From: Escherichia phage vB_EcoM_VR20 | Reading direction: 5' to 3' (one strand) | DNA length: 64,000 nucleotides | Sequence record: NC_028894.1 | Shown here: positions 7,856 to 58,473 of the stretch, in pieces | Layout of the letters: each line of letters begins with the position of its first letter | Position numbering within the stretch: the first letter of the stretch is position 1 | The notes under the pieces: generated by a model | Databases searched by the model: none | The model's input: the letters and a program-made list of their open reading frames with translations, nothing else | What the model was told of the DNA's origin: nothing | Position numbers and translations under genes: made by a program

Positions 7856-9415
7856 ATGAAAAAGAATGCATTAGTTCAAAAATGGTCCGCTCTGTTGGAA
7901 AACGAAGCTCTTCCGGAAATCGTTGGTGCTTCTAAACAAGCTATCATCGCTAAAATCTTTGAAAACCAGGAACAAGATATCCTGACCGCTCCAGAATACC
8001 GTGACGAAAAAATCTCCGAAGCATTTGGTTCTTTCCTGACCGAAGCTGAAATCGGTGGTGACCATGGTTATGATGCTACCAATATCGCTGCTGGCCAGAC
8101 CTCTGGTGCAGTAACTCAGATTGGGCCGGCAGTTATGGGTATGGTTCGTCGTGCTATCCCGCATCTGATTGCGTTTGATATTTGTGGCGTACAGCCTCTG
8201 AACAACCCGACTGGCCAGGTATTTGCCCTGCGTGCAGTTTACGGTAAAGACCCTGTCGCTGCTGGTGCTAAAGAAGCTTTCCACCCGATGTATGCTCCGA
8301 ACGCTATGTTCTCCGGTCAGGGCGCCGCTGAAGCTTTCGAACCTCTGGCTGCAAGCAAGCTGCTCACCGTTGGTAAAATTTATTCTCACTTCTTCGAAGC
8401 AACCGGTTCTGCACACTACCAGGCTGTTGAAGCTGTAACCGTTGATGCTGGCGCTACTGATGCTGCTAAACTTGACGCTGAAGTTACCAAACTGCTCGAA
8501 GCTGGTAAGCTGGCAGAAATCGCTGAAGGTATGGCTACCTCTATCGCCGAACTGCAGGAAGGCTTCAACGGTTCTCAGGATAACCCGTGGAACGAAATGG
8601 GCTTCCGCATCGATAAACAAGTTATCGAAGCTAAATCCCGCCAGCTGAAAGCAAGCTACTCTATCGAACTGGCACAGGACCTGCGCGCTGTTCACGGTAT
8701 GGACGCTGATGCCGAATTGAGTGGTATTCTGGCTACCGAAATTATGCTGGAAATCAACCGCGAAGTTATCGATTGGATTAACTACTCCGCACAGGTTGGT
8801 AAATCTGGTATGACCAACACCGTTGGCGCTAAAGCTGGTGTGTTCGACTTCCAGGACCCGATTGATATCCGTGGCGCTCGTTGGGCTGGTGAAAGCTTTA
8901 AAGCTTTACTGTTCCAGATTGACAAAGAAGCTGCTGAAATCGCTCGTCAGACTGGCCGTGGTGCAGGTAACTTCATCATCGCTTCCCGTAACGTAGTTAA
9001 CGTACTGGCTGCAGTTGATACCTCCGTATCTTATGCTGCTCAGGGTCTGGGTAAAGGTTTCAACGTTGACACCACTAAAGCTGTGTTCGCTGGTGTTCTG
9101 GGTGGCAAATACCGTGTATACATCGACCAGTATGCTCGCGCAGATTACTTCACCATCGGTTACAAAGGCGCTAACGAAATGGATGCTGGTATCTACTACG
9201 CACCATATGTTGCACTGACCCCGCTGCGTGGCTCTGACCCGAAAAACTTCCAGCCGGTTATGGGCTTTAAAACCCGTTACGGTATCGGTATTAACCCGTT
9301 CGCTGACCCGACAGCTCAGGCTCCGACCAAGCGTATTCAAAACGGCATGCCGGACATCGTTAACAGCCTCGGCTTGAACGGTTACTTCCGCCGCGTATAT
9401 GTTAAAGGAATTTAA
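7856..9415 (+). CDS. 23: major capsid protein
   Basis: 519 aa; T4 gp23-like; paralogous to the gene 24 products. Confidence 0.97.
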   Translation: MKKNALVQKWSALLENEALPEIVGASKQAIIAKIFENQEQDILTAPEYRDEKISEAFGSFLTEAEIGGDHGYDATNIAAGQTSGAVTQIGPAVMGMVRRAIPHLIAFDICGVQPLNNPTGQVFALRAVYGKDPVAAGAKEAFHPMYAPNAMFSGQGAAEAFEPLAASKLLTVGKIYSHFFEATGSAHYQAVEAVTVDAGATDAAKLDAEVTKLLEAGKLAEIAEGMATSIAELQEGFNGSQDNPWNEMGFRIDKQVIEAKSRQLKASYSIELAQDLRAVHGMDADAELSGILATEIMLEINREVIDWINYSAQVGKSGMTNTVGAKAGVFDFQDPIDIRGARWAGESFKALLFQIDKEAAEIARQTGRGAGNFIIASRNVVNVLAAVDTSVSYAAQGLGKGFNVDTTKAVFAGVLGGKYRVYIDQYARADYFTIGYKGANEMDAGIYYAPYVALTPLRGSDPKNFQPVMGFKTRYGIGINPFADPTAQAPTKRIQNGMPDIVNSLGLNGYFRRVYVKGI

Positions 9416-9465: not shown

Positions 9466-9747
9466 TCATACCATACCATTTAAATGAACTTCTACCCGGC
9501 GCTTGATGAGGTCTCTGAAATTAACACTGTTCTCTTGAAGTTTCAACCAGGTACCTGATTTGTCTTTGGTGTGAGTAGAATAATTACCATTCCACCAAAA
9601 ATCAGTATCATATGCTAAGTTTTCATATTTTTTAACTAGTTTGTTCAGAGCATTACCATTAACACCATTTGGGTATTTGTTGACCAATGCAACAACTTCA
9701 ATTTCCAGATTTTTAAAGGTATTCCGAAGGAAAGATACTTTGTTCAT
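9466..9747 (-). CDS. hypothetical early protein, 93 aa
   Basis: Minus-strand ORF with GGAG 6 nt before the ATG and an early promoter upstream; no known motif recognised. Confidence 0.5.
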   Translation of the reverse strand: MNKVSFLRNTFKNLEIEVVALVNKYPNGVNGNALNKLVKKYENLAYDTDFWWNGNYSTHTKDKSGTWLKLQENSVNFRDLIKRRVEVHLNGMV

Positions 9748-9782
9748 TTTAGACTCCATTGTTTGGTAACTCAGTATGAAAT

Positions 9783-9813
9783 CATTATGTCTTATCTTAA
9801 TCAGGTTGTAAAC
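9783..9813 (-). promoter_or_regulatory. early promoter (GTTTAC-N18-CATAAT), antisense to the late gene cluster
   Basis: Minus strand reads GTTTACAACC...CATAATGATTTCATACTGAGTTACC, the shared early leader. Confidence 0.55.
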
Positions 9814-9853: not shown

Positions 9854-11134
9854 ATGGCAAAGATTAACAAATTACTGCGCGAGTCAACTACCACTACCAG
9901 CAACTCCTTGGGCCGCCCGAATCTTGTTGCTTTGACCCGTGCTACAACCAAATTGATTTACCGCGATATCATCGCTGAACAACGTACTAACCAGCCAGTT
10001 GCGGCTCTGTACGGTGTTAAATATCTTACTCCTGATAATGAATTCAGTTTCCAGACTGGTGCTACTTATGGTGGTGAAGTTGGTTCAAAAGACCGTACAA
10101 CTATTCCGGAATTTACAACCCCAACTCAGGCCGTAGCTAAAGGTGGATACATTAAATTCCAGAATATCGTTTATAAAGCTCTGGTTGATAATCCATTTGC
10201 ATCGACCACAGAAACAGTATTATCTGATGTTCTACAGGAAGGTCTTGTTGCATTAACTATTCGTTTAGTTCCTGATGCTGCACACACCGAAAAATTTGAA
10301 GCTGGTGATGTTGAAATTAGTAACGCTGTATTCCAGGTTAATAAATGGAATGCTCCTGTTAAATCCCGTAAATTGAAAACTGCATTAACTGTTGAGCTTG
10401 CTCAGGATATGGAAGCAAATGGCTTTAATGCTCCTGCGTTCCTGGAAGACCTGCTTGCTACTATTATGGCAGATGAAATTAACAAGGATGTTCTTCAGTC
10501 TCTTATTACCGTTTCCAAGCGTTATAAAGTAACTGGCGTTTCTGACAATGGCACCATCGATTTAACATATGATGCAGCTCCAGAAGGTGCACGTAAACTG
10601 TACGAACTGGTTTGCGAAATGAACTCCGAAATTCAGAAAACTACATCTTATTCCGGTACCTTTGTTGTTGCCTCCAGCCGTGTTGCTGCTATGTTGGCTG
10701 GTTCTGGCTGGCTGAAGCATAAACCTGAAGACGAACAGTGGCTTCCTGAAACAGCGTACGGTTATTTGATTAATGGTCTTCCTGTATTCTGTGATGTTAA
10801 CAGTCCATTGGATTATGTAACCGTTGGCGTTAAAGAAAATTACGGTGGAAACGAAGTCGTAGGCTCAATCTTCTATGCTCCTTATACCGAAGGCCTGGAC
10901 TTAGATGATGAAGAACACGTAGGTGCGTTTAAGGTCATTGTGGACCCAGACAGCTTGCAGCCATCTATCTCCCTGATGGTTCGATATGCGCTTTCAGCTA
11001 ACCCTTACACCGTTGCTAAAGACGACAAAGAAGCTCGTATTATCGATGCAACTAATATGGATTTAATGGCCGGCCAGAGCAATATGTCTTATCTGCTCGG
11101 TGTTAAACTTCCGCCAATCATTTATGAGGCGTAA
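9854..11134 (+). CDS. 24: capsid vertex protein
   Basis: 426 aa; N-terminus MAKINKLLRESTTT matches T4 gp24 as recalled. Confidence 0.95.
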   Translation: MAKINKLLRESTTTTSNSLGRPNLVALTRATTKLIYRDIIAEQRTNQPVAALYGVKYLTPDNEFSFQTGATYGGEVGSKDRTTIPEFTTPTQAVAKGGYIKFQNIVYKALVDNPFASTTETVLSDVLQEGLVALTIRLVPDAAHTEKFEAGDVEISNAVFQVNKWNAPVKSRKLKTALTVELAQDMEANGFNAPAFLEDLLATIMADEINKDVLQSLITVSKRYKVTGVSDNGTIDLTYDAAPEGARKLYELVCEMNSEIQKTTSYSGTFVVASSRVAAMLAGSGWLKHKPEDEQWLPETAYGYLINGLPVFCDVNSPLDYVTVGVKENYGGNEVVGSIFYAPYTEGLDLDDEEHVGAFKVIVDPDSLQPSISLMVRYALSANPYTVAKDDKEARIIDATNMDLMAGQSNMSYLLGVKLPPIIYEA

Positions 11135-12418
11135 ATGCAAAAGATTAACGCACTAATTCACGAATCAACATTAACGGCGGCCAACCAGGTCGCCCGTCCT
11201 AATTTGCTTTCTTATACTCAGGCCACGAATAAACGAATTTTTAAAGCACTCGTGGCCGAACAGAAAACTACTCAGCCAGTTGCAGCGTTGTATGGTGTTC
11301 GTGTTCTGAACCCAGATGATAAAATGACATATCTTGGTGGAGCAACGTTTGCGGGTCAAATTGGTATGTTCGAGCGTAAGAATATTCCAGAATTTACAAA
11401 CAAAGACGAAGCTTATGCAGTCGGCGATATGTTCCAGTTTGAAAGTGTTGTGTTCAAAGTTTTGGAAGCATCACCATTCGCCGGGACTCTTGAAACTGAT
11501 TTGGGTGAAGTTATTTCTGAAGCCATTGCTGCTGGCCATATAAGAATGATGTCGGATGCGGCTTTCACTGATAAATTTGAACAAGGTCATCCTGAAATTG
11601 CTGAAGCCGGTTTCCGTATTGATAAATGGCAGACCGAAGTCAAATCCAGAAAGCTGAAAACTTCTTTAACGGTCGAGCTTGCACAGGACCTGGAAGCAAA
11701 CGGTTTCGATGCAACAGACTTCATTGATAATATTCTCGGTATTCAGATGGCAGAGGAAATTAATAAGGATGTACTGCAATCCCTTATTACTGTCAGTTCT
11801 CGCTTCAAGGTGCAAGGTGTTTCTGAAAAAGGTGTATTGAATCTAACTGACCCGAAATATGATAACGCTCAGGACCGTGCGCGAACCCTGTATTATTATA
11901 TGTGTGAAATGAACTCCGCAGTTCAACGTCAGACTTCGTTTGCTGGTACATATGCAGTCGCTTCTTCCCGGTGTGCAGCTATTTTAGCAGCTTCTGGTTG
12001 GGTTGAGAAAAAGGAAGACCAGGATGAATTAGCCTATGGCGTTCTGAAGAACGGTTTACCACTTTATGCAGATATGAATAGTCCATGTGATTATGTTATT
12101 GTTGGTGTAAATGCTGATATGGGTGAAGGTCAGACGGTCGCATCTTTGTATTATGCGCCTTATACGGAAGGACTTAGTGAAGTTGATGATGAGGGTGATA
12201 CCTCGGTCGGGGAATTCAAGGTTATTGTTGACCCTGAAAGCTTGCAGCCTACTGTTGCGCTATTAGCTCGTTATGCATTGACAGCGAACCCTTATACGGT
12301 TGCGAAAGATGATAAAGAAGCTCGCATTATTGATGGTGCTGATATGGATAAGATGGCCAACCAAAGCCAATTGAGTTCTTATCTTGGTGTTAAACTTCCA
12401 CCACTGGAAAAAGAATAA
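11135..12418 (+). CDS. second capsid vertex protein, tandem paralog of gene 24
   Basis: 427 aa; clearly homologous to the upstream gp24 over its whole length; starts right after the gene 24 stop with GAGG upstream. Confidence 0.9.
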   Translation: MQKINALIHESTLTAANQVARPNLLSYTQATNKRIFKALVAEQKTTQPVAALYGVRVLNPDDKMTYLGGATFAGQIGMFERKNIPEFTNKDEAYAVGDMFQFESVVFKVLEASPFAGTLETDLGEVISEAIAAGHIRMMSDAAFTDKFEQGHPEIAEAGFRIDKWQTEVKSRKLKTSLTVELAQDLEANGFDATDFIDNILGIQMAEEINKDVLQSLITVSSRFKVQGVSEKGVLNLTDPKYDNAQDRARTLYYYMCEMNSAVQRQTSFAGTYAVASSRCAAILAASGWVEKKEDQDELAYGVLKNGLPLYADMNSPCDYVIVGVNADMGEGQTVASLYYAPYTEGLSEVDDEGDTSVGEFKVIVDPESLQPTVALLARYALTANPYTVAKDDKEARIIDGADMDKMANQSQLSSYLGVKLPPLEKE

Positions 12419-12440
12419 GGGCCTTGCGGCCCTTTTTTAT
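12419..12440. terminator. terminator hairpin GGGCC-TTGC-GGCCC plus T-run
   Basis: Between convergent gp24 paralog and rnlB. Confidence 0.7.
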
Positions 12441-14038: not shown

Positions 14039-14130
14039 GTTGAGTTAGTGAAGCTATCTTAACATGGAATTTTTAACTTGTAAACAGGGTTTTTATGCCA
14101 GGCAACGTTTGTACAGTACCATAAAAACAA

Positions 14131-14151
14131 AGGGACCCGAAGGTCCCTTTT
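14131..14151 (-). terminator. terminator hairpin AGGGACC-CGAA-GGTCCCT plus T-run
   Basis: Immediately downstream of hoc on the minus strand. Confidence 0.7.
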
Positions 14152-14154
14152 TAA

Positions 14155-15288
14155 TTAATAAACGTAATCGTATATAATACCAGCTTCTAAAGCGGTGCGA
14201 TGAATAATTCGACCATTACGAGATTCTTGTACATCAACCTCTGGATAGTCGGTAATCATTTTTTGAAGGGTATATCGGTGCAAATAATACGGGCTATCTG
14301 GAGCATCAGTTTTCCAGTCTTGCCCAGCAAGAGTCATTTTCTGAATTTCGTCCATAACCCACCAACCACACCAGATATAAGCTGAATTACGAACTGGCAG
14401 CGGATGAACGTAAGGTAGTTCACCCTCTGGTTCAGGTGCGACTTTAGCGGTGACTGTTACATTACCAGTTTTTGTTACCGTCACTGGGTTATAATCAGTC
14501 GCCGAAACCACAACAGAAACTTCAATAACCTGTGAACCTTCGGCGCTTGTATCGATTACCAGAGTATCCGTGGTGCCATCTACAGGAGAACCATCTTTCT
14601 TCCAAGAATAAGCAAAAGTAGCTCCACTCGGCGCGCCGACTACATCCGCTTTAAAAGAAGCTGGAGTACCTTCAGAGACAGTAATAGAAGCAGGCGTTAA
14701 AGTAACAGAAACACCCGACATAGTTTTCTTAACAAACGTTACCTCAGCTCCTTTAGTTGCGGTGCCATTATTATAATCGGGTGCAGAAACAGTAACTTCG
14801 CAGTTCAATGTATAATTTGCTTCTGCTGATTCGGTAACAGTAATAGTTTCACCAGTTTGACCTGGGATTACGCTAGTGTTACGTTTCCAAACATAAGCAA
14901 TTGTTGCACCAGAAGGAGCACCTGTCACGTTAGCAGTAACAACTTGAGATTGCCCTATTTCTTTAGTAACAGAGGCCGGGTCTAAAGTCAGCGTGATTGC
15001 CGGCATTGTTTTATTCTGGATAGTTAAAGTTGTTTCAGCTTCAGCAGTTTCCGGTTCCCCGTCTGCCGGAGTGGTGGTTGCAACAACTTTAATAGTCTTA
15101 CTGCCTGCTGGACCAACAGCGACATAATCCATTGCAGCAGTCACAGAAGATTGAGGAACGCCATCAACGGTCCAGACAAATGATTCGGTACCTTCAGCTG
15201 CAGCGCCAGCGCCGGTTGCAGTGAAATTGGTTGTTGCTCCAATAACGGCCGTAGCCGCCAAAGGAGCAATAGTTACGGTATAAGCCAT
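14155..15288 (-). CDS. hoc: highly immunogenic outer capsid protein
   Basis: 377 aa; C-terminus PYVHPLP...CGWWVMDEIQKMT matches T4 Hoc. Confidence 0.95.
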   Translation of the reverse strand: MAYTVTIAPLAATAVIGATTNFTATGAGAAAEGTESFVWTVDGVPQSSVTAAMDYVAVGPAGSKTIKVVATTTPADGEPETAEAETTLTIQNKTMPAITLTLDPASVTKEIGQSQVVTANVTGAPSGATIAYVWKRNTSVIPGQTGETITVTESAEANYTLNCEVTVSAPDYNNGTATKGAEVTFVKKTMSGVSVTLTPASITVSEGTPASFKADVVGAPSGATFAYSWKKDGSPVDGTTDTLVIDTSAEGSQVIEVSVVVSATDYNPVTVTKTGNVTVTAKVAPEPEGELPYVHPLPVRNSAYIWCGWWVMDEIQKMTLAGQDWKTDAPDSPYYLHRYTLQKMITDYPEVDVQESRNGRIIHRTALEAGIIYDYVY

Positions 15289-24897: not shown

Positions 24898-25856
24898 TGT
24901 TTACTTTACAAGAATTTCAAACACAAGCGATTAATATCGACTTGCAGAGGAATAACCTTTTTAGTGTGGTCTTCGCGACCGCACCTTCCTCTAAATCTCA
25001 GAATCTTCTGGACCAGTTTGGTGGCGCATTATTCAGTAACCTTCCTGTTAACTCAGATTGGTTCGGATTAACACAAGGTGACTTAACTCAGGGGATAACA
25101 ACTCTTGTTACTGCCGGGACACAAAAGCTTATTCGCAAATCAGGGATAAGCAAATATCTTATTGGGGCAATGAGTAACCGTGTTGTGCAATCATTATTAG
25201 GTGAATTTGAGGTTGGTACTTACCTGCTTGATTTCTTTAATATGGCTTATCCAACGGCTGGTCTATTAGTTCACTCTGTTAAGCTTCCGGATAACACATT
25301 GAACTACGAAATGGACCTTAACCATAATGCGCCAAATATCAAGATAACAGGGAGAGAATATTCTCCGTTGGTATTGAGCTTTAGAATGGATTCAGAGGCA
25401 GGGAACTTCAGAGCATTTAACGATTGGGTTAACTCTGTACAGGACCCAGTTACCCAGCTAAGGGCTTTGCCTGAAGACGTTGAAGCTGATATTCAGGTTA
25501 ACCTTCATTCGCGTAATGGGTTACCGCATACGGTTGTTATGTTAACTGGTTGTGTTCCTGTAAGTGTATCAGCGCCTGAATTGAGTTATGAAGGTGATAA
25601 TCAGATAGCTACATTTGATGTGACTTTTGCTTATCGCGTTATGTCAACTGGTGCGGTGGGAAGAGCTGCAGCATTGGAATGGTTGGAAGATAAGGTTATT
25701 AAAGGTGTATCTGGTATTAGTTCAGATAACAACTTGAACGCAGAAGTTGCCAAATTGAGTCGCTTGTCTGGTGCTCAATCTGGATTAACAAGTCTATACA
25801 ATACGTTTACTGGTTCTGGGAGAACAGTCTCTGGTGGAAGTCAACGTATATTATAA
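24897..25856 (+). CDS. 54: baseplate tail tube initiator
   Basis: 319 aa; synteny. Confidence 0.85.
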   Translation: MFTLQEFQTQAINIDLQRNNLFSVVFATAPSSKSQNLLDQFGGALFSNLPVNSDWFGLTQGDLTQGITTLVTAGTQKLIRKSGISKYLIGAMSNRVVQSLLGEFEVGTYLLDFFNMAYPTAGLLVHSVKLPDNTLNYEMDLNHNAPNIKITGREYSPLVLSFRMDSEAGNFRAFNDWVNSVQDPVTQLRALPEDVEADIQVNLHSRNGLPHTVVMLTGCVPVSVSAPELSYEGDNQIATFDVTFAYRVMSTGAVGRAAALEWLEDKVIKGVSGISSDNNLNAEVAKLSRLSGAQSGLTSLYNTFTGSGRTVSGGSQRIL

Positions 25857-25862
25857 AAAGAA

Positions 25863-25886
25863 AGGGACCCGAAGGTCCCTTTTTTA
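25863..25886. terminator. terminator hairpin GGGACC-CGAA-GGTCCC plus T-run
   Basis: Between convergent gene 54 and the alt.-1-like ORF. Confidence 0.7.
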
Positions 25887-26174
25887 TTTGCGGAATGAAA
25901 TGAAACCTGCTGCAGTCATGACAGCTTCTTTCTTAACAAATACTGTAATTGCAATTGGTGCTTCAGATTCAAGTTGTCCAGTTACTACACCATTAAAAAT
26001 ATTTTCTGTTTGTTCAGAATTTACAAAGTTTTCAACAGGGCGAAGGTCAAACTTCTTATCTTCGCCAAACACGCGCCGCAGTTCATTACCCACTGCGCTG
26101 TCAAACTCTTCTGAAGCCGGGATAACATTCTCAACTACCAGTTCCTGACCATTAAAGCGAAAAGATGATTTCAT
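25884..26174 (-). CDS. hypothetical early protein, 96 aa (alt.-1 position)
   Basis: Start MKSSFRF preceded by GAGGAA and an early promoter. Confidence 0.55.
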   Translation of the reverse strand: MKSSFRFNGQELVVENVIPASEEFDSAVGNELRRVFGEDKKFDLRPVENFVNSEQTENIFNGVVTGQLESEAPIAITVFVKKEAVMTAAGFISFRK

Positions 26175-32617: not shown

Positions 32618-32986
32618 TTATGCGACTTTAATCCAATTATCTAAATTTAATTCACCCTTAGCTTTCATTTTTTCAATCAAATCATCAGCAGTGGTGCGAC
32701 CATTTTGATACCATGTAACATCTTCAGAATAACCAGTTTCTTCATCTTCATAGGTCTTACAACGAATCTTACCAAGAATCAAAGTTTTCAGTTCGTAGGT
32801 ATCACCAGTAAAAAAGTTTGTTACCATAATTTTCCAGGAGAAGTCATCAGAAGGACCTTCTGGAGTCATGCAAGAAACGAATTCAAATTGTTCTTTATAC
32901 AAGTGCCATTGCATTTCTTTAGTTTCAATGGCTTTGTAGCCGTCGTGGTCTTTACCTTTGATGTATGAGTTAAGATTGATTTTCAT
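32618..32986 (-). CDS. hypothetical protein, 122 aa
   Basis: ORF preceded by the same leader as 48405..48644. Confidence 0.65.
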   Translation of the reverse strand: MKINLNSYIKGKDHDGYKAIETKEMQWHLYKEQFEFVSCMTPEGPSDDFSWKIMVTNFFTGDTYELKTLILGKIRCKTYEDEETGYSEDVTWYQNGRTTADDLIEKMKAKGELNLDNWIKVA

Positions 32987-33026
32987 TTTATTCTCCAGTG
33001 TTTTATTGTGTAACTCAGTATGGAAT

Positions 33027-33057
33027 CATTATGCACTGGACCAACCCTGTTGTAAAC
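33027..33057 (-). promoter_or_regulatory. early promoter GTTTAC-N18-CATAAT with leader CCATACTGAGTTAC
   Basis: Near-identical cassette at 48685..48715. Confidence 0.55.
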
Positions 33058-33075
33058 CTTTTATGGAAATAAAAA

Positions 33076-35802: not shown

Positions 35803-36044
35803 TGAATATACACTCGCTGCGCTTCAACCAGACCATCAGAACCCAATTTCAGTTGGGTCAACTGGTCACCACCTTTTAGAGTAATTTTCGGATTAATGAC
35901 AATCATAAAACTGCGTGCAGATTCCTGAATAACTTGCAAAGTCGCAGCAGGGAATCGCTGCGATACGCGGTTAATCATCTCTTGAGCAAATGCCTTCACT
36001 TTTTCGTGAAACTCTTCAACAGTAATTGGGGTTTCGCTAAGCAT
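35799..36044 (-). CDS. hypothetical protein, 81 aa
   Basis: ORF in the cd.x region. Confidence 0.6.
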   Translation of the reverse strand: MLSETPITVEEFHEKVKAFAQEMINRVSQRFPAATLQVIQESARSFMIVINPKITLKGGDQLTQLKLGSDGLVEAQRVYIQ

Positions 36045-36586
36045 CAGATTGTCTCCTGTTTTACTTGTTTAACGATAGAAGCTTTTGTGATATCGCCCTT
36101 GATAATATAACAATCTTCTGCAGTACCACGGTTTAACAGACGCTCTGCCTCGCCTTCCGCATATTCTTTTGACACATGACGAGAGTTAATCTCAATCTTG
36201 CCATTTTTAACCACAAGCAATTTCCAAACTGATGCAAGTTTTACTGGCACAGGTTCAACTTCTGGCTTAACGCCAACTTCCGCTTGGATGAAATAATCAA
36301 ATTCATCAGACAATGGACCAGCAGAAACAAACATTGCCCCATGATGCCTGTTTTCTGCACCAGAAATTTTTGCCAAATCCACAAAATTCTTTTCATCAAT
36401 CAAACGAATCTCACAAACTTTTCTTCCACCGCTAGCAGTATCAGGGACAATCTTAACTTCAAACGGAGTCATACCGATGTATTTGGCAATTTGGTAATTA
36501 GCTGCCCAGCCTCCGGCAATAAACTGTTTTTTGGCATTTTCAGATGCGAACTTGTAAAACTTGCCTTCTTCAAAGAAATTACTCAT
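36044..36586 (-). CDS. hypothetical protein, 180 aa, shares N-terminal GKFY...AKKQFIAG motif with 48978..49346
   Basis: ORF with early promoter and GAGGAAAAC upstream. Confidence 0.65.
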   Translation of the reverse strand: MSNFFEEGKFYKFASENAKKQFIAGGWAANYQIAKYIGMTPFEVKIVPDTASGGRKVCEIRLIDEKNFVDLAKISGAENRHHGAMFVSAGPLSDEFDYFIQAEVGVKPEVEPVPVKLASVWKLLVVKNGKIEINSRHVSKEYAEGEAERLLNRGTAEDCYIIKGDITKASIVKQVKQETI

Positions 36587-36613: not shown

Positions 36614-36643
36614 TCATTATACACCATCCGTGGTGAAAGTAAA
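36614..36643 (-). promoter_or_regulatory. early promoter GTTTAC-N17-TATAAT
   Basis: Clean match on the minus strand upstream of 36044..36586. Confidence 0.6.
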
Positions 36644-36646
36644 CAC

Positions 36647-39564: not shown

Positions 39565-39914
39565 TTGGTGAGCTCCTGGAAGTCCTGGGCGAACTTATCA
39601 AAAGACTGATTAATCTGTTTTTCAACTAATTTAGGCTTCGCTGCCACAACCTTAGTACGTTTTGCATCTGCGCGAAGTTTATCATTTTCCTTCTGCAGGT
39701 GTTCAACATATTCCTGGCGCTGTTGGTCAAGGAGATTAATTTGATTAACCTGGTCTTTTATTGATTGCAGATTTTTCGCATTATCTTCTGCGACTTTGGT
39801 GACTTCCGCCACCGCTGTCTTGAGATTATCCACTTTTGCTTTTAGATAGAAACCACTACCAGCAGTTACTACCAGGGCGAGCATAAGCCCTGCGGTGAGA
39901 TTACTTATTTGCAT
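39561..39914 (-). CDS. inner-membrane spanin (pseT.3 position)
   Basis: N-terminal transmembrane segment then coiled-coil-like sequence; 117 aa. Confidence 0.75.
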   Translation of the reverse strand: MQISNLTAGLMLALVVTAGSGFYLKAKVDNLKTAVAEVTKVAEDNAKNLQSIKDQVNQINLLDQQRQEYVEHLQKENDKLRADAKRTKVVAAKPKLVEKQINQSFDKFAQDFQELTK

Positions 39915-40408
39915 AACTTGATGATTACCTCAACAATATCATCCTGGGATAAACCATTCAGGAGGATGTGATTTGTACTGTCAGATGCTGAAATGCGGAA
40001 CTGATTACCAACTTCATCCGCCATATCATCCTGGGTTAATACTGGGTGTTTAATTCCCAGGCGGTGCTGAAGTGTCAGGGGTTCAACCACAACATAACAA
40101 ACACATCCATTGATATGCACATTAGGTTGGGTCTGATTGATGAACACTTCTGCATCATATTTAACCAAATGGTTCTTTAAGAAGTCAACCATTTCAGGAA
40201 CAGATTCATGCAGCGCTTCTTTCCGCTCTTCTGATTTTTTATCACGATATTCTTTTTGTTTCGCCTTCAACTTTTTATTGGAGGCGAGTTTTTTCCGCAA
40301 GTCAGTCATGAGACCAATTTTCTTGGTCCCTTTATAGACATAAATTCCGTCATGACGGTCACCATATTCATTGACAATCATTTCATTTGAAATCAGTTGC
40401 ATATCCAT
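39905..40408 (-). CDS. alc: Alc, transcription terminator on cytosine-containing DNA
   Basis: 167 aa from MDMQLISNEM, the T4 Alc length and position; track ORF extends upstream from a GTG. Confidence 0.85.
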   Translation of the reverse strand: MDMQLISNEMIVNEYGDRHDGIYVYKGTKKIGLMTDLRKKLASNKKLKAKQKEYRDKKSEERKEALHESVPEMVDFLKNHLVKYDAEVFINQTQPNVHINGCVCYVVVEPLTLQHRLGIKHPVLTQDDMADEVGNQFRISASDSTNHILLNGLSQDDIVEVIIKLCK

Positions 40409-40421
40409 AATATTTTCCTCA

Positions 40422-40655
40422 TTAGTAGCGGTTGTAACCCCGGGGGCCAAAAGAGTTGGCACCCAGACGTTCATCTTTCTTTTTGGCTCTTGCTCTAAAC
40501 CCAGAATCACCTGTTTGAGCTTTCAGTTCTTTTAACAATTTGGCCTTCAGGTCAGTAATGAAACCAATCCGGCGGTCTCCCTTGTAGACATAGATTCCAT
40601 CATTTCTGTCGCCATATGCCTTTGTAACTCTGTCATTTGAAATTAAGTTTAACAT
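40422..40655 (-). CDS. Alc N-terminal-domain paralog, 77 aa
   Basis: MLNLISNDRVTKAYGDRNDGIYVYKGDRRIGFITDLKAKL is clearly homologous to the Alc N-terminus; GAGGA and early promoter upstream. Confidence 0.6.
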   Translation of the reverse strand: MLNLISNDRVTKAYGDRNDGIYVYKGDRRIGFITDLKAKLLKELKAQTGDSGFRARAKKKDERLGANSFGPRGYNRY

Positions 40656-40685
40656 GTTTTGGTCCTCATCAGTAGTTGATGGAAC

Positions 40686-40716
40686 CATTATGTATAGAAA
40701 GAAGGGGCTTGTACAC
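40686..40716 (-). promoter_or_regulatory. early promoter GTGTAC-N18-CATAAT overlapping the rnlA terminator
   Basis: Minus strand GTGTACAAGCCCC...CATAATGGTTCC. Confidence 0.5.
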
Positions 40717-46394: not shown

Positions 46395-48052
<1,658 letters not shown>

Positions 48053-48056
<4 letters not shown>

Positions 48057-48394
48057 TTTAATTCCTTAACTGCCTTTTTGATGGCAGTAAAATCTTTGCG
48101 AATATCAAGAACCAATTTGTAAAGATGTTTAATTGTATCTGTATCAAAATATGATACCACACAACGAGAATTGCGAATATCTTCTAATGAATACTTGCTT
48201 TCACTTGTGCCATATCCAATGATACCACTAATGCACTTGTCATTAAGCGTATATTTCTGTGGACCATCAATAATATTTTTAGGATAGATGTAAAGACTCC
48301 AATCAAATTTTTGTTCAAGCGTATTAACCTTAACTTCAAGAATCAGTTCAGGATGTGCATCATCTTTAGCAAAACAAGTGTATTCAGTAAGCAT
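48053..48394 (-). CDS. hypothetical protein, 113 aa
   Basis: Start MLTEYT after GAGGAAAATATA; upstream track residues overlap the preceding gene. Confidence 0.55.
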
Positions 48395-48404
48395 TATATT
48401 TTCC

Positions 48405-48644
48405 TCACGCTTTCTTAGCGACTTTCCAGTCAGCTTTAAATTGGTCAACGTCAGAGTGATGAATCCAGAAACCAGATGAGCTACCATCTTCATAAAGAGG
48501 ACAACCATCACACTCATCTTTCCAACCCATTGCACACAAAGTTTCTTCAGCTTTTTCTAGAGCTTCTGGATTGTTACCCTGGATTGTGAAATACCATTTG
48601 CCTTTAACTTCTGAATCTTTGATGCTCTCACGTTGTAATTTCAT
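48405..48644 (-). CDS. hypothetical protein, 79 aa
   Basis: ORF with GGAG and early promoter upstream. Confidence 0.6.
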   Translation of the reverse strand: MKLQRESIKDSEVKGKWYFTIQGNNPEALEKAEETLCAMGWKDECDGCPLYEDGSSSGFWIHHSDVDQFKADWKVAKKA

Positions 48645-48684
48645 TTTATTCTCCAGTGTTTTAGTTGTTAACTCAGTATGGGAC

Positions 48685-48715
48685 CATTATGTCATAGCCC
48701 CATTTGGTTGTACAC
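48685..48715 (-). promoter_or_regulatory. early promoter GTGTAC-N18-CATAAT with leader CCATACTGAGTTAAC
   Basis: Near-duplicate of the cassette at 33027..33057. Confidence 0.55.
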
Positions 48716-48721
48716 TACTTT

Positions 48722-48976
48722 TTAAATTTTATCAAGCCATTTTCCAAGTTTAGTCATTTCCTTGGTGGCCTTTTCCATACTTCTGAACTTAACTAATAAA
48801 GGATGAACATCCATACCCATCACCAGATTGGTTGCAAGACTATGTTCACCAACAAGCCATAATGAGTATGTTTGAACATCCAAACCATAATTTCTGTCTT
48901 TATGCAAACGCACACCCATCACTTCAAATTGCTCACTCGCCTTTTCTACTGCATCCAGGAAATCATCTTTAGTCAT
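48722..48976 (-). CDS. hypothetical protein, 84 aa
   Basis: Start MTKDD preceded by GAGGT. Confidence 0.55.
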   Translation of the reverse strand: MTKDDFLDAVEKASEQFEVMGVRLHKDRNYGLDVQTYSLWLVGEHSLATNLVMGMDVHPLLVKFRSMEKATKEMTKLGKWLDKI

Positions 48977-48977
48977 A

Positions 48978-49346
48978 TTAGACCTCAAAAGTTGCTTTAA
49001 TCAGTGCAATGACTTCTGCGGCATTTTTGTGATTGACTTGCACATGAATGGTTTGGGTATCAACATCAGGAGCATCACTATCAACTTCCAGGAAGTGACA
49101 GAATTCCCATTCAGCGAGTTCAAAGTACTCATCAGCGTCACACATACTATTCAGGATGGTACCATCTTTCATTTCAACTTTTTCAACAAAATAATCACCT
49201 TCAATATAACACATATCCAGGATTTTGAAGGAATTGCCGTGTTGTTCCATCAACTTGACCATGCACGAATTATCATCAGGACTACCAGCGATGAATTGTT
49301 TTTTAGCAGCAGGGTCTAATACGTAAAATTTACCAGTTTCCATCAT
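48978..49346 (-). CDS. hypothetical protein, 122 aa, small-protein paralog family
   Basis: Start MMETGKFY preceded by GAGGAA; homologous to the 49695..50058 gene. Confidence 0.6.
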   Translation of the reverse strand: MMETGKFYVLDPAAKKQFIAGSPDDNSCMVKLMEQHGNSFKILDMCYIEGDYFVEKVEMKDGTILNSMCDADEYFELAEWEFCHFLEVDSDAPDVDTQTIHVQVNHKNAAEVIALIKATFEV

Positions 49347-49377
49347 TTTAATTTCCTCATTTTTGTTGAGGGAACAT

Positions 49378-49405
49378 ATTATCATGTTCCCGTTGGTTTG
49401 TATAC
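49378..49405 (-). promoter_or_regulatory. early promoter with -10 GATAAT in the loop of hairpin GGGAACAT...ATGTTCCC
   Basis: 8-bp perfect inverted repeat around the -10. Confidence 0.45.
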
Positions 49406-49632
49406 TAAGCTTGAATCAAGCCCATATAAAATTCAGCGTCTTCCGGGTGCATCCCTTCGCAATATTCATTTTGCATAAAGCGAGTAAGGTCTTCAAGAGG
49501 ACCTTGAACTTCAATTTGAATACTAAAGAATTGGGTATCTTTAATGTAAGTCATACACAAAGAAGGATACCGATTACGAATAACTTCGTAAGTGTATTCA
49601 AAATCAACGATATCAATATTAACCTTAGCCAT
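49405..49632 (-). CDS. hypothetical protein, 75 aa
   Basis: ORF with GAGGAAAATAAA and early promoter upstream. Confidence 0.6.
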
Positions 49633-49661
49633 TTTATTTTCCTCATGTAGTTGATAGGTCT

Positions 49662-49692
49662 ATAATAACATAATCATAGACCCGTTGTAAAC
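49662..49692 (-). promoter_or_regulatory. early promoter (GTTTAC, -10 inside palindrome GGTCTAT...ATAGACC)
   Basis: Seen on the minus strand upstream of 49405..49632. Confidence 0.45.
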
Positions 49693-49694
49693 TG

Positions 49695-50058
49695 CTATTT
49701 GAAGGCTTTTTGTAGAAGTTCAATGATTTGGTCGACGTTATTAGCATCTACAACACAATTAATAGAAACCGCCCCTGAAGGTGTTTTTGTATAACTGGAG
49801 TATTCACGGAAGCAATAAAACTCTTCTTCACTAAGTTCAAAATAATCATCACCCATACCATCATCATTATAGATTGCACCATTAGCACAAATTATTTCGG
49901 TTACATAATCATAGCCGTCTGCACTTGATATTGATTTAACTTCAAAACCAATCACCATTTTCTTGGATGATGTCGACCATACTAGCATTCGATGAACTAA
50001 TATCAATGAAAGATTTAATACGATGTGGATTGAACTCATATTTTTTGCCAATTTCCAT
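49695..50058 (-). CDS. hypothetical early protein, paralog of 48978..49346, reading frame broken by +1 at a UUU-UGA site
   Basis: ATG with GAGGAAATAAAA at 50058 opens a 38-codon frame ending in TGA; the homologous remainder is the track ORF 49695..50051 in the +1 frame. Confidence 0.45.
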
Positions 50059-50093
50059 TTTTATTTCCTCAGTGGTTATCAGTAGTTGATGGA

Positions 50094-50135
50094 ATCATTA
50101 TGCACCGGGTCAAGGGACTTGTACACTACTTTTTG
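50094..50135 (-). promoter_or_regulatory. early promoter GTGTAC-N18-CATAAT
   Basis: Minus-strand motif upstream of the 50058 ATG. Confidence 0.5.
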
Positions 50136-50146
50136 AAAATAAAAAA

Positions 50147-50165
50147 GGGACCCGAAGGTCCCCTT
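50147..50165 (-). terminator. terminator hairpin GGGACC-CGAA-GGTCCC
   Basis: Directly downstream of gene 32. Confidence 0.65.
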
Positions 50166-50168
50166 ATA

Positions 50169-51080
50169 TTAAAGGCCAGCCAGAAGGTCGTCAAGACCAT
50201 CATCAGAAGGCTCTGGAGTGCTTGGAGCAGTCGCAGTGCGTTCAGACTTAGCAGGTTTGCTGGAAGTGAAGTCTTCCATATCTTTATCAAAATCGTCCAG
50301 GTCAGCGCCCAGTTTATCGGCTTGCGCAGCAGCTTTAGAAGCAGCACCACCGAGAGCAGCTGTACCCATTACTTTAGCGAATTTCTTCTGATTCTCTTCA
50401 AGAGATTTAAATACCAGCAATTCATTCAGGTCAGACATTTCGTCCCAAAGTTTTTTCTGGAATGCTTCATCATTGATGCCAGCGATTTCAGACTGGTTCA
50501 TGAATTTGGAATCATCGTAGTTTTTATAGCCGGAAACCATTTTAGATTTCAGTACGAAGTTCGCACCTTCAAAAGGACAGGTTACATCAATAGCTGTTTC
50601 GCCCATGTCAACATCGACTTCAACCATCTGGTTGATTTTGTCCATGATTTTCTTACCAAAGCGATATTTGAATACTTGGCCTTCGTTAGACGGAACAGCA
50701 GGGTCTTTAATGACCAGGATGTTAGCCCAGTAAGAAGTATTACGCTTCAGTTTACGATATTCGGATTCGTTTGTATTGTACAGGTCATTCTTATTCATGT
50801 ACGCACACACAGGGCAGTTTTCATAATCGCCGTGAGTAGAAGTACAGTTTTCAATATACCATTGACCAGCATTTTTAAAGCCGTGGTTAACGAGCTTGAT
50901 GAATGGAGATGGATTTTCTTCATTCTTAGAAGGCAGGAAACGAATAACCGCAGAGCCGACGCCATCAGTATCTTTCAGTTTCCATTCTTTTTTATCGTCA
51001 GAAGAGAAACCAGCACCACCTTTCAGTGCATTAAGGGAAGCAGCCAGGTCAGCAGGGTTTTTACGTTTAAACATAGACAT
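50169..51080 (-). CDS. 32: single-stranded DNA-binding protein
   Basis: 303 aa; N-terminus MSMFKRK and body match T4 gp32. Confidence 0.95.
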
Positions 51081-51140
51081 ATGATTTTCCTTAGATTATT
51101 TGATTTTTAGCAGTTGTTTTGATTACGTATTAATTATACT
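51081..51140 (-). promoter_or_regulatory. gene 32 mRNA leader, likely translational operator
   Basis: AT-rich 60-nt leader before gene 32; T4 gp32 autoregulates through its leader. Confidence 0.4.
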
Positions 51141-51809
51141 TCAAAGTGATTGAAGCGTTATTTGACAGTTTTTAACGGTCTCGATGAACAATTTACGAGC
51201 TTCAAGAGAATCTATATTTAAGATTTTCTTATAGGCATTTAGTTTGGTCGAATACTTTTCCCAAACCAAGTCGTTAGTCTGTTCATCATGTTTATTTATA
51301 ATACCTAAAAATGAATCAAGCAAACAAAACGTTTCAAATGAGATAACATTCGATTGGAGAAGTTTGAAAATATAACTTGTATTCACTTTAGTATTATACT
51401 CGAAAATCTCTTGGAGCGATTTGACTTCGACTTTCTTACTGAAGTAATAGATGTTCTTTATATCATCTTCGTATACTTGTCTAATTCTTTTAAGTCTGCC
51501 AATGTATTCTCTATAAAATATCAGAGCATCGGCATCACTTATATCGCCTATCCATGCATCCTGGTTTGCAACCAGGTTTGACATGAATATTAACGTTAAT
51601 TCTTTGAGAGTGTACTTATCGCTAAGCTTTTCGAAAAAATACTTATCGCGACGTTTTTGATAAGCACTATCGGAGATTCGCATGGTCCAGTTATATTTGA
51701 TAATATCATAACGACCCGAAAAATGCTGTTTGATGGATAAGTACAGTTGGTATACTGATTTACCATTTATATATCGGTTGTTATTTGGAGGCATGCGAAT
51801 CGTAATCAT
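51141..51809 (-). CDS. 59: helicase loader
   Basis: 222 aa; start MITIRMP; overlaps the gene 33 stop. Confidence 0.9.
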   Translation of the reverse strand: MITIRMPPNNNRYINGKSVYQLYLSIKQHFSGRYDIIKYNWTMRISDSAYQKRRDKYFFEKLSDKYTLKELTLIFMSNLVANQDAWIGDISDADALIFYREYIGRLKRIRQVYEDDIKNIYYFSKKVEVKSLQEIFEYNTKVNTSYIFKLLQSNVISFETFCLLDSFLGIINKHDEQTNDLVWEKYSTKLNAYKKILNIDSLEARKLFIETVKNCQITLQSL

Positions 51810-57305: not shown

Positions 57306-58442
57306 ATGGAAAGATTTATGGCTGAATTTGGACAGGGATATGTCCATGTTCCCGTGCTTTCTGAAAATAACGCAGTAAGATATAAATTGTCGATTGCTGG
57401 GACTTGTACCAAATCGCCAAACTATCCCTACGTTAAGTTTCAAGATGAGGCCTTCGGGCCTCAGACATTCCAGAATGGATTAAACCTTATTGAGATTGAC
57501 CCAGTAACAAATACAATCACTGCAACCAAAAACTATGGTTTCACAAAAGACTATGATGTCATTTCACAGGCCTTTGTGACTTATATTAATTCCATCCCAG
57601 CGGGTAGGATTGTTTGTTTGATATCGCAGGGAAAATTGAATGCTTCCCAAACTTTAATTGATTGGTTCAGAACACATGGCTCGACTGCATTTCCGGATAA
57701 GTGGTTGATTGACCAAGTTGATACTTCGTATTCGGCTTTTTATATCTCTGGTCGAAATGCAATCGTTAAAGAGCATGTGCTATATAATGACGGGGTAACT
57801 GTTGAGGATGTATTGACTCCATTGGAAATGGTGTACGACGACTTCGCTGATGTGGGTGGCACAGGATTCCCTCTGCGCATCGTGGAAGACGGAAACACAT
57901 ATTATAGTAATAGTACACAAGAAATAAAACGCTTCCCCACAGACTCCCCCATCACTCCTGCGGCCGATTATAATATGGCCCCTGGTGATACTTTTTATCT
58001 GAAGTTTCAGCTGACATATGACCAGGCACTTAAAGACCTTGGAACAACTCAGATGTCTGTTCGATTCTTTAGTGGTCAGACGATGATTCAGTCAAACGAT
58101 TATGATATCCCATCTACAGGTCAAGCAAGTCCACCGGCTGGCGCATGGATGACGTTTGAACGTTATGTAGTTGTTCCACCGAATGCTGATGGATTTACAT
58201 TGTATGCAAGGAAGACCGTTGCTGCTGGACAAGGTGGAGTAAGGAATATTTTCTTTACAGAAATCGCGCGACAAGAAACACAAGCTAAATCTGCAGAAAT
58301 CGGTGTCAACGGCATAAGAATGGTTGTAGCTGGAGAACCGGGAAATCTTGGTAATGTCATTGCACAATTGAATGATAAAAATGCAACTAAAGCAAGTCAA
58401 TCTGGATTTGTATTTGCTGCAGAATTCCGTGAAAAAGAATAA
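57306..58442 (+). CDS. 35: long tail fibre hinge protein
   Basis: 378 aa; synteny. Confidence 0.9.
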   Translation: MERFMAEFGQGYVHVPVLSENNAVRYKLSIAGTCTKSPNYPYVKFQDEAFGPQTFQNGLNLIEIDPVTNTITATKNYGFTKDYDVISQAFVTYINSIPAGRIVCLISQGKLNASQTLIDWFRTHGSTAFPDKWLIDQVDTSYSAFYISGRNAIVKEHVLYNDGVTVEDVLTPLEMVYDDFADVGGTGFPLRIVEDGNTYYSNSTQEIKRFPTDSPITPAADYNMAPGDTFYLKFQLTYDQALKDLGTTQMSVRFFSGQTMIQSNDYDIPSTGQASPPAGAWMTFERYVVVPPNADGFTLYARKTVAAGQGGVRNIFFTEIARQETQAKSAEIGVNGIRMVVAGEPGNLGNVIAQLNDKNATKASQSGFVFAAEFREKE

Positions 58443-58463
58443 GGACCTTCGGGTCCTTTTTTC
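58442..58463 (+). terminator. terminator hairpin GGACC-TTCG-GGTCC plus T-run
   Basis: Directly after gene 35. Confidence 0.7.
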
Positions 58464-58465
58464 AT

Positions 58466-58473
58466 TATAAATA
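58466..58473 (+). promoter_or_regulatory. late promoter TATAAATA upstream of gene 36
   Basis: Exact box about 25 nt before the gene 36 ATG. Confidence 0.7.

Follow-up and report, generated by a model that had tools for sequence, protein, structure and literature searches.

Two Frd.2 paralogs and early promoter/stem-loop cassettes in the gene 32-frd interval of Escherichia phage vB_EcoM_VR20, a probable hyperplastic region

We analysed a stretch of 64,000 nucleotides (nt) of Escherichia phage vB_EcoM_VR20 (NC_028894.1; hereafter the window, to which all positions refer), and in it the interval between gene 32 and frd, the gene for dihydrofolate reductase. In all likelihood this interval is a hyperplastic (variable) region of the T4 type, in which small early genes are carried on promoter-early stem-loop (PeSL) cassettes. 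Two of these genes, frd.2a and frd.2b, encode members of the FRD2 protein family; homologous recombination inside the conserved cassettes, with no local tandem duplication, would have brought them together and rearranged them, and frd.2a is split here by a single extra T. A first-pass annotation, made from the sequence alone, had described an expanded interval with a paralogous protein family and repeated promoter cassettes. This outline stands, whereas the local duplication, a promoter for every gene and an intact second paralog do not.

Gene content of the interval

The region 47800-50200 shows 89-97% nucleotide identity to Gaprivervirus T-even phages (CJ20, TH44, SP18, VR7/25/26, EAWsc9 and others), and judged by these identities the window derives from a Gaprivervirus-type T-even phage of the SP18/VR7/CJ20 group. 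All genes of the interval lie on the minus strand, with transcription directed from gene 32 over frd to td. The upstream boundary is gene 32 (50169-51080), whose product of 303 amino acids (aa) has 98-99% aa identity to gp32 of CJ20 and SP18, where it is annotated as the single-stranded DNA-binding protein; the downstream boundary is frd (47251-47844). Between them the list of open reading frames (ORFs) holds seven small ORFs, as the first-pass annotation had counted, one of which is split. T4 has just frd.1, frd.2 and frd.3 at this place, and we therefore regard the interval as expanded.

Following the direction of transcription, the first gene is the T4-type frd.2a (49695-50058), which consists of a 5' part of 38 codons (49942-50058) and a 3' part of 83 codons (49695-49946). 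It is followed by a frd.3 homolog (49405-49632; 75 aa; Pfam PF05798 Phage_FRD3, E = 5.5e-37, 126.5 bits against a cut-off of 28.1) and by the intact, JS98-type frd.2b (48978-49346; 122 aa; Pfam FRD2, E = 4.4e-32; phrog_622). Next are an ORF of 84 aa (48722-48976; phrog_4423), a frd.1 homolog (48405-48644; 79 aa; Pfam DUF5417, PF17438, E = 1.5e-35, 121.7 bits against a cut-off of 23.9), an ORF of 113 aa that resembles JS98 gp228 (48053-48394; phrog_8592) and whose Shine-Dalgarno (SD) sequence overlaps the frd.1 stop codon, and a RB32ORF231c-like ORF of 75 aa (47829-48056; phrog_3183) that overlaps its neighbours on both sides. All seven ORFs match PHROG families (E = 1e-28 to 1e-76).

Two lineages of Frd.2

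The first-pass annotation had read the ORFs at 48978-49346 and 49695-50058 as paralogs, and the alignments confirm this. Frd.2b and the intact form of Frd.2a share 30% identity over 122 aa, that is, over the full length (BLASTP, E = 1e-14), and an all-against-all comparison of the proteins in the window, a check proposed along with the original claim, recovers the pair with E = 2e-12, so that the paralogy is statistically sound. Both lineages score far above the gathering threshold of Pfam FRD2 (PF03197; 29 bits): Frd.2b reaches 111.1 bits and the intact SP18 ortholog of Frd.2a 120.7 bits. The latter score is that of the SP18 protein; the window copy of frd.2a is not an intact full-length coding sequence.

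The two copies differ strongly in their relation to T4. Repaired Frd.2a is 99.2% identical to SP18 Frd.2a and 78% identical to T4 Frd.2, with homologs at 951 places in 871 phage records (tblastn), whereas Frd.2b has 34% identity to T4 Frd.2. The SP18 record already names the pair frd.2a ("similar to ORF frd.2 of T4") and frd.2b ("similar to Frd.2 of JS98"). From these similarities it is highly probable that frd.2a is the ortholog of T4 frd.2 and frd.2b the JS98/VR type, the two being old FRD2 lineages; the identities already point towards separate a-type and b-type clades across genera. The family is already catalogued (in Pfam as FRD2, in SP18 as frd.2a/frd.2b, and by Kim et al. 2025), with entries that stop short of a functional characterisation, which the first-pass annotation had named as a ground for refuting its claim.

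The number of Frd.2 copies varies between relatives. A VR25-like contig (locus L016) carries a third Frd.2-like ORF of 85 aa, comprising only the barrel described below, between gene 32 and frd.2b (3678-3932 of that contig), and its VR25 counterpart (A0A0A7HGH0) superimposes on the Frd.2b model with a template modelling (TM) score of 0.93 over 87 columns; the copy number in the interval thus ranges from 1 to 3. Among the public Frd.2 entries (P0122-P0129), several are truncated or frameshifted, including a 90-aa version from a T4 strain and N-terminal fragments of 65-70 aa. An entry of 109 aa is a fusion of the Frd.3 N-terminus to the Frd.2 C-terminus, and one of 97 aa resembles a similar fusion. 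Disruption or rearrangement of Frd.2 genes is therefore recurrent in public data, whether real or through sequencing error.

Promoter/stem-loop cassettes

Early-promoter motifs occur at four places in the interval, ahead of frd.2a, frd.3, frd.2b and frd.1. The claim of an early promoter for each gene is thus true for only four of the seven: the ORFs of 84, 113 and 75 aa start 1-10 nt past the preceding stop codon, or overlap it, and have no promoter. The four promoters lie at 50126, 49692, 49405 and 48715 and have boxes of the type GT(G/T/A)TACA and (C/T/G)AT(A/T)AT, spaced by 15-18 nt and preceded by AT-rich AAAAAGTAGT-type tracts. At the 3' end all four cassettes carry an SD sequence and start codon, as GAGGAAA(A/T)(T/A)AAAATG or CTGGAGAATAAAATG.

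At three of the four promoters a strong inverted repeat is found between -35 and +1, and its loop or 3' arm holds the -10 hexamer; the hairpins have energies of -11.9 to -14.6 kcal/mol and z scores of about -3.7 to -3.9. In the frd.3 cassette (49656-49692) the promoter GTTTACA-18-TATTAT (49662-49692) is combined with an 11-bp stem-loop over the -10 box (49656-49683; z of the folds -2.66 and -3.66). The frd.2b cassette (49370-49405) has the promoter GTATACA-15-GATAAT (49378-49405) and the stem-loop GGGAACAT/ATGTTCCC (49370-49391), in whose loop the -10 hexamer lies (z = -3.85), and the frd.1 cassette (48678-48715) has the promoter GTGTACA-17-CATAAT (48686-48715) and a stem-loop at 48678-48703 (z = -3.78). 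The fourth promoter, that of frd.2a (GTGTACA-17-CATAAT, 50097-50126, from the motif scan), is situated directly behind the predicted terminator hairpin of gene 32 (GGGGACC-TTCG-GGTCCC followed by a T-run, 50144-50165; terminator scan and RNA fold), so that the stem-loop of this PeSL is placed upstream of -35; the hairpin belongs to repeat family D4, with further copies at 14121, 25853 and 58431. Across the window a nested hairpin is found at 5 of 12 such promoter-like sites.

PeSL cassettes are known from T4-type phages (Arbiol et al. 2010, PMC2839356; Comeau et al. 2014, PMC4122927), and their stem-loops are most often located between -35 and -10 or overlapping -10 (PMC2839356). The cassettes of the interval show all sequence-level features of these elements, and we are rather confident, from this anatomy, that they belong to the published PeSL class. 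Nesting of stem-loops in the promoters was also considered as a new variant; this idea was dropped, as Arbiol et al. (2010) list the position as the commonest. Scans of the interval for MotA boxes and late promoters gave nothing relevant.

A cassette would accordingly consist of an AT-rich stretch, then an early promoter of the sigma-70 type whose -10 box has a stem-loop over or beside it, and lastly an SD sequence with the ATG. The four cassettes are predicted to drive frd.2a, frd.3, frd.2b together with the 84-aa ORF, and frd.1 together with the ORFs of 113 and 75 aa, the last unit continuing into frd. We infer early timing and co-transcription of these units; from T4 biology, the RNA polymerase of the host with sigma-70 would express them early, and the stem-loops would attenuate read-through.

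The leader ahead of frd.1 is repeated elsewhere. The promoter/leader at 48639-48715 is common to 32981-33057 (minus strand as well), which precedes the gene 30.8 homolog (32618-32986), with 78% identity over 77 nt; from the -10 box to the ATG the identity reaches 92.6% in an alignment of 54 columns (within the window, E = 4e-16). There is also a third copy, at 9737-9813, with weaker similarity. The near-identity of leader sequences that had been noted for 48645-48720 and 32987-33060 is therefore real.

Two classes of early cassettes can be distinguished among the promoter-like sites on the minus strand of the window. Those at 50126, 40716, 33057 and 9813 share the conserved core CATAATG(A/G)TTCCAT, lack an internal hairpin and in most cases follow closely on a terminator hairpin; those at 49692, 49405, 48715, 39170 and 32613 have a strong hairpin over the -10 box, the arms of which vary between cassettes in relatives yet still pair. 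A family of near-identical terminator hairpins (AAAGGGACCCGAAGGTCCCTTTTT) stands behind several genes including gene 32, at 14121-14156, 25853-25888, 50136-50171 and 58431-58466, and also at 12407-12438.

Cassette shuffling against local duplication

Gene order was compared over eleven related IMG/VR loci and the genomes of CJ20, SP18 and EAWsc9. The same genes occur in differing orders. The window, CJ20 and EAWsc9 have 32, frd.2a, frd.3, frd.2b, 84, frd.1, 113, 75, frd (numbers denoting the ORFs by their length in aa), EAWsc9 without the 75-aa ORF, and SP18 has the order of the window without frd.3. Genomes of the VR26/VR25 type read 32, frd.2b, 84, frd.3, frd.1, and so on; locus L017 reads 32, frd.2b, a-type, 84, frd.3, frd.1, and so on; locus L019 reads 32, a-type, 84, frd.3, frd.2b, frd.1, and so on; and locus L026 has the T4-like order 32, frd.3, frd.2a, 84, frd.1, frd.

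The breakpoints between these orders lie within cassettes. SP18 has frd.2b behind the frd.3 cassette of the window, which is identical up to GAGGAAAATAAAATG and then continues with frd.2b, as expected if two neighbouring PeSLs had recombined through their SD-ATG segments. In VR26 the cassette ahead of frd.2b is a chimera, in which the promoter half of frd.2a (the same upstream half as at 50097-50126) through CATAATGATTCCAT is joined to a 30.8-type leader. Likewise, frd.1 stands behind either of two cassettes, depending on the gene upstream.

The main alternative would be a tandem duplication of one frd.2 cassette on the spot, followed by divergence. Two Frd.2 members within 1.1 kb, each with a similar promoter/leader ahead of it, would suit such an event, and locus L024 indeed carries two adjacent Frd.2 copies. 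Nonetheless, the copies are only 30% identical and differ in their closeness to T4 Frd.2 (78% for frd.2a, 34% for frd.2b), and the promoters of frd.2a and frd.2b belong to different PeSL classes. Moreover, some relatives have only one of the two copies and others have both, in either order or separated by frd.3 and the 84-aa ORF, with chimeric cassettes at the junctions. We therefore consider local duplication quite improbable; the differing orders, the junctions inside cassettes and the low identity between the copies together favour old lineages joined by cassette recombination. The cassette duplication suggested by the first-pass annotation is thus retained as far as the repeated promoter/leader units are concerned and abandoned as a local event. 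The interval provides a worked example of PeSL-mediated shuffling in a T-even lineage (Gaprivervirus/Dhakavirus) outside the original PeSL papers, with junctions resolved to the base.

One difference in gene content has another character. The 75-aa ORF beside frd is precisely missing in EAWsc9, and the junction shows an overlap of about 9 nt at the gene boundaries without a promoter cassette; this indel is therefore not PeSL-mediated.

The frameshift in frd.2a

The stretch 49695-50058, which the first-pass annotation had taken as one ORF, measures 364 nt and is not divisible by three. Together with the extra T this means that it is not a single ORF. A run of TTTT at 49944-49947 (TGGTTTTGA in the window, TGGTTTGA in relatives) contains one T more than the alignment with CJ20, SP18 and EAWsc9, as seen also in pattern scans and in the list of indels against CJ20. 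Consequently the 5' fragment (49942-50058) ends after 38 codons at a premature TGA in the ORF list, and the 3' fragment of 83 codons (49695-49946) lies in the +1 frame, where frame translation shows it open to the normal stop. All relatives compared are intact: CJ20, SP18, EAWsc9, TH44 and three metagenomic or viral contigs. In tblastn, TH44 and the more distant a-type genes each yield one match over the full length. The TTT version is present in three contigs, one of them from IMG/VR and two from metagenomes; for the TTTT version there is no exact match in IMG/VR and none among the metagenome matches.

Apart from the extra base the gene appears undamaged. All five window-specific substitutions in frd.2a are synonymous, and the lesion is therefore very recent or artefactual. 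Over about 62 kb aligned to CJ20, no other indel breaks the frame of a conserved ORF without being compensated, and the assembly is therefore not prone to frameshifts in general. Generally poor assembly quality was rejected as its cause, given that the other indels against CJ20 with lengths not divisible by three are intergenic or form compensating pairs in a divergent patch.

An isolated sequencing or assembly error in the homopolymer is a different matter; the real phage would then have two intact Frd.2 genes, like SP18 and CJ20. The lesion consists of one base within a T-run, the remainder of the gene is undegraded (the five synonymous substitutions, the open +1 frame), the TTTT variant was found in no other sequence searched, and other frameshifted Frd.2 entries in public data (such as P0125 from a T4 strain) look error-laden. 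On the other hand, with four T the run is short for an error of this kind, no second uncompensated frameshift is seen in the conserved ORFs over the alignment with CJ20, and Frd.2 copies are naturally dispensable: VR25, VR26 and VR5 do without the a-type and T4 without the b-type. We regard the error as a substantial possibility, though one with less than even chances.

A third reading is that frd.2a is still expressed, through a +1 slip of the ribosome at UUU UGA that would restore the full-length protein. The model for such a site is the recoding site of prfB (RF2), with an SD-like element, 3 nt and CUU UGA C. The mRNA of frd.2a reads GGUGAU UGG UUU UGA A and shares with prfB an SD-like element (GGUGAU), a 3-nt spacer, a slippery codon and UGA; the shift would give exactly the wild-type ...DWFEVKS..., and tRNA-Phe could re-pair perfectly on UUU in the +1 frame. 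In contrast to prfB, however, the site is not conserved in relatives. All comparators have the in-frame TTT, the variant is unique to the window genome and born of a one-base insertion, and there is no sign of selection for a shift site. Furthermore, GGUGAU is ordinary coding sequence for Gly-Asp that is present in the intact SP18 gene and altered in CJ20 and EAWsc9. Because the variant is unique and its flanks are ordinary coding sequence common to intact relatives, we consider programmed recoding extremely unlikely, and the likeness to prfB as resemblance only and no membership of its class. The remaining probability is shared by a sequencing error and an allele that is real and recent, be it null or leaky. 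In the latter case frd.2b, which is intact, probably covers for the broken frd.2a.

Fold of Frd.2 and its relation to the 180-aa protein

Structure prediction of the paralog family, proposed in the first-pass annotation, yields a confident barrel for Frd.2b (AlphaFold2 on 69 family sequences; mean predicted local distance difference test, pLDDT, of 89.8). Strand 1 contains the GKFY motif and is followed by two helices (AKKQFIAG...MVKLMEQHG), a beta-hairpin of which the GDYF/GYDY block forms the turn, and strand 4; after this come a short helix and strand 5 (the YFEL.E.EF..F.EV block), an acidic linker of low confidence and a C-terminal helix. With strands 6-9, 38-47, 50-58, 63-65 and 84-87, and the helices inserted past strand 1, the model is an N-terminal, five-stranded bent barrel that occupies roughly the first half to two-thirds of the protein. 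Frd.2 has been placed in a GoF/MotB.1/Frd.2 'LSm-like' family (Kim et al. 2025, PMC12152347), and our model reproduces the fold reported there. In a Foldseek search of viral models (BFVD) it matches VR7 GoF (E = 5.6e-6) and T4 MotB.1 (P39415; E = 9.3e-4), whereas Foldseek against the PDB gave no significant match and a PDB sequence search with the Frd.2 profile gave no relative with a solved structure.

The GKFY...AKKQFIAG motif had been reported to recur in a 180-aa protein of the window (36044-36586, minus strand; VR7 gp232 type). It does (pairwise E = 3e-4 over 32 aa), and the similarity can be widened to homology over a domain of about 95 residues: the first ~105 residues of the protein correspond to the N-terminal barrel of Frd.2 and GoF. 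In hhalign the 180-aa family aligns to Frd.2 over 92 columns with a probability of 94.2% (E = 1.1e-7), a value obtained once diverse members were added to a shallow alignment that gave 65%; the aligned region extends to a common EF.YF.E motif. The protein itself matches phrog_2980 (goF; E = 1.1e-8) and phrog_622 (Frd.2; E = 1.4e-4), five of six diverse relatives match phrog_622 (E = 6e-5 to 1e-7), and in the other direction Frd.2b matches the profile of the 180-aa family, phrog_5804 (E = 2e-4). Among the 260 ORFs of the window the 180-aa family and Frd.2 are reciprocal best non-self matches, and the 180-aa protein of VR26, probably an ortholog, is a Foldseek match of the Frd.2b model (E = 8.2e-4). 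An exhaustive profile search with the 180-aa family in a library of 1.8 billion proteins retrieved no more than 10 representatives, and neither Frd.2 nor GoF came up at E-values for the whole library; the link is based on PHROG profiles, hhalign and Foldseek. The protein appears to be a further branch of the GoF/MotB.1/Frd.2 family with a C-terminal domain of its own of about 70 residues.

The gene is flanked by the homologs of cd.3 and cd.2, a place that is empty in T4, with an early promoter (GTTTACT-16-TATAAT, 36616-36644, minus strand) directly upstream. Its occurrence is limited to 82 records of Gaprivervirus and Dhakavirus.

Possible function of the acidic barrels

Frd.2 proteins are small and very acidic. 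Their predicted fold begins with a beta-barrel of the SH3/Tudor/LSm-like type, which an acidic linker connects to a helix at the C-terminus, and the barrel would be common to Frd.2, GoF, MotB.1 and the 180-aa protein. Over 69 family members the median isoelectric point (pI) is 4.46 and the median net charge -13 (Frd.2b -15, Frd.2a -13).

Kim et al. (2025) hypothesised that proteins of this type are LSm/Hfq-like RNA binders that act early in infection on the stability or translation of mRNA. The predicted five-stranded bent barrel of Frd.2b agrees with such a role, as does its resemblance to GoF, of which the D25Y mutant stabilises gene 41 mRNA (PMC12152347). The strong acidity of the family, with the pI and charge given above, argues against it, and so does the report that wild-type GoF and MotB.1 showed no RNA effect whereas the active mutant reportedly gains positive surface potential (PMC12152347). 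RNA binding is therefore judged unlikely. The acidity rather points to protein partners, and because of this, and of the RNA results for GoF and MotB.1, we lean towards barrels that bind a host or phage protein early in infection, as adaptor or decoy; we give this part of our explanation about an even chance. RNA polymerase might be a candidate partner, which is speculation from weak resemblances to CarD and the UvrD Tudor domain.

A more specific proposal is that Frd.2, GoF, MotB.1 and the 180-aa protein are multi-copy, rapidly shuffled acidic decoys of the Tudor/SH3 type that dock on a basic surface of a host protein. Such a target could be, for example, a nuclease, a sensor of a defence system or the lobe of the RNA polymerase beta subunit that serves CarD, Mfd and the Tudor domains of UvrD/PcrA. 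This we consider improbable as it stands. If true, partial redundancy among paralogs would explain the fitness effect of a T4 frd.2 knock-down against the normal plating of an amber mutant, the free loss of either copy and a tolerated or leaky frameshift. In a CRISPRi-ART screen frd.2 was the only T4 fitness gene of unknown function (PMC11879866), and frd.2 amber mutants plate normally (PMC12152347). The interval bears on this question, with interchangeable a-type and b-type lineages of which either may be absent, and a T4-type copy broken beside an intact paralog. Since the two types are patchily present and the a-type is broken here, redundancy among Frd.2 paralogs is suggested, which might include GoF, MotB.1 and the 180-aa protein.

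The small ORFs might also be anti-defence genes, with copy-number variation resulting from an arms race with host immunity. They are early, dispensable, patchy in distribution and easily shuffled, and the 84-aa ORF occurs in unrelated phage groups too. They have, however, no similarity to characterised anti-defence proteins, and in Pfam, NCBIfam and PADLOC they matched only families of unknown function. We rate the chance of this reading as low.

Four points weigh against the picture as a whole. The assignment to PeSL elements is based on sequence anatomy and comparative junctions. Binding to protein is derived from charge alone, and a GoF point mutant does stabilise mRNA (PMC12152347). The AlphaFold2 model of the 180-aa protein is poor (pLDDT 52.6), too poor for a fold search. 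Finally, the frameshift may be a sequencing error, which would undo the redundancy argument.

Other ORFs of the interval and further gene pairs

The ATG of the 84-aa ORF follows the frd.2b stop codon by 1 nt; given this spacing the ORF would be co-transcribed and is probably translationally coupled to frd.2b. The ORF is found directly 3' of a Frd.2-type gene, a-type or b-type alike, with a TAAnATG junction in the window, in L001-L003 and in all seven IMG/VR loci that have the ORF (L016-L019, L023, L025 and L026). It keeps 89-96% identity across loci though the Frd.2 partner upstream switches, and homologs are present in non-T4 phages as well, including Klebsiella siphoviruses (38% identity). 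The ORF may form a functional pair with Frd.2 or be a fixed recombination anchor.

The ortholog of the 113-aa ORF in EAWsc9 is annotated 'type II toxin-antitoxin system PemK/MazF family toxin'. This label was rejected, as there is no such match in Pfam (even at E up to 10), NCBIfam or PADLOC. More generally, NCBIfam and PADLOC scans of eight proteins gave no match, a Pfam scan of four unassigned proteins at E up to 10 gave chance-level DUF matches only, and an Rfam scan of 46500-51500 at E up to 1 gave no match.

Two further pairs of related genes are seen in the window. At 9854-11134 and 11135-12418 there are adjacent genes of the gp24 capsid-vertex type (56.5% identity over 428 aa), both more distant from the major capsid gene (7856-9415); in CJ20 the pair is annotated as capsid vertex proteins I and II, and DNA repeat D1 (10919-11116 and 12206-12403, 73%) reflects this duplication. 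At 39905-40474 and 40422-40688 two overlapping neighbours on the minus strand share 45% identity over 74 aa. The VR26 counterparts of both are annotated Alc (inhibitor of host transcription), which suggests a partial duplication of alc.

Comparison with known systems

The components of the interval are already known: the FRD2 family with the frd.2a/frd.2b pairing, the GoF/MotB.1/Frd.2 barrel superfamily and the PeSL cassettes. Our additions are modest and consist of shuffling junctions at base level in this lineage, the assignment of the 180-aa protein to the superfamily, acidity as an argument about mechanism, and the frameshifted T4-type copy.

With T4 Frd.2 (PF03197) and the SP18 pair the window shares the family, far above threshold, and the location between 32 and frd, and with SP18 also the arrangement in two copies. 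The difference is that the T4-type copy is broken by the insertion of 1 nt, and that the order is 32-frd.2a-frd.3-frd.2b against 32-frd.3-frd.2 in T4.

The family described by Kim et al. (2025, PMC12152347) has, like Frd.2b, an N-terminal bent beta-barrel, a linker and a variable C-terminal part, with FeoA-type SH3-like domains as the nearest solved folds. The strong acidity of the Frd.2 family fits poorly with the RNA binding proposed there.

A further correspondence is with the PeSLs of T4-type phages. These have the AT-rich stretch, the sigma-70-like boxes, the stem-loop between -35 and -10 or over -10 or else a terminator just upstream, the SD sequence and ATG, and the hyperplastic setting; close relatives also differ by indels and swaps whose junctions lie within the cassettes. 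The elements of the window, known here from sequence, differ in nothing essential; the Gaprivervirus lineage merely appears to have a -35 flavour of its own, GT(G/T)TACA.

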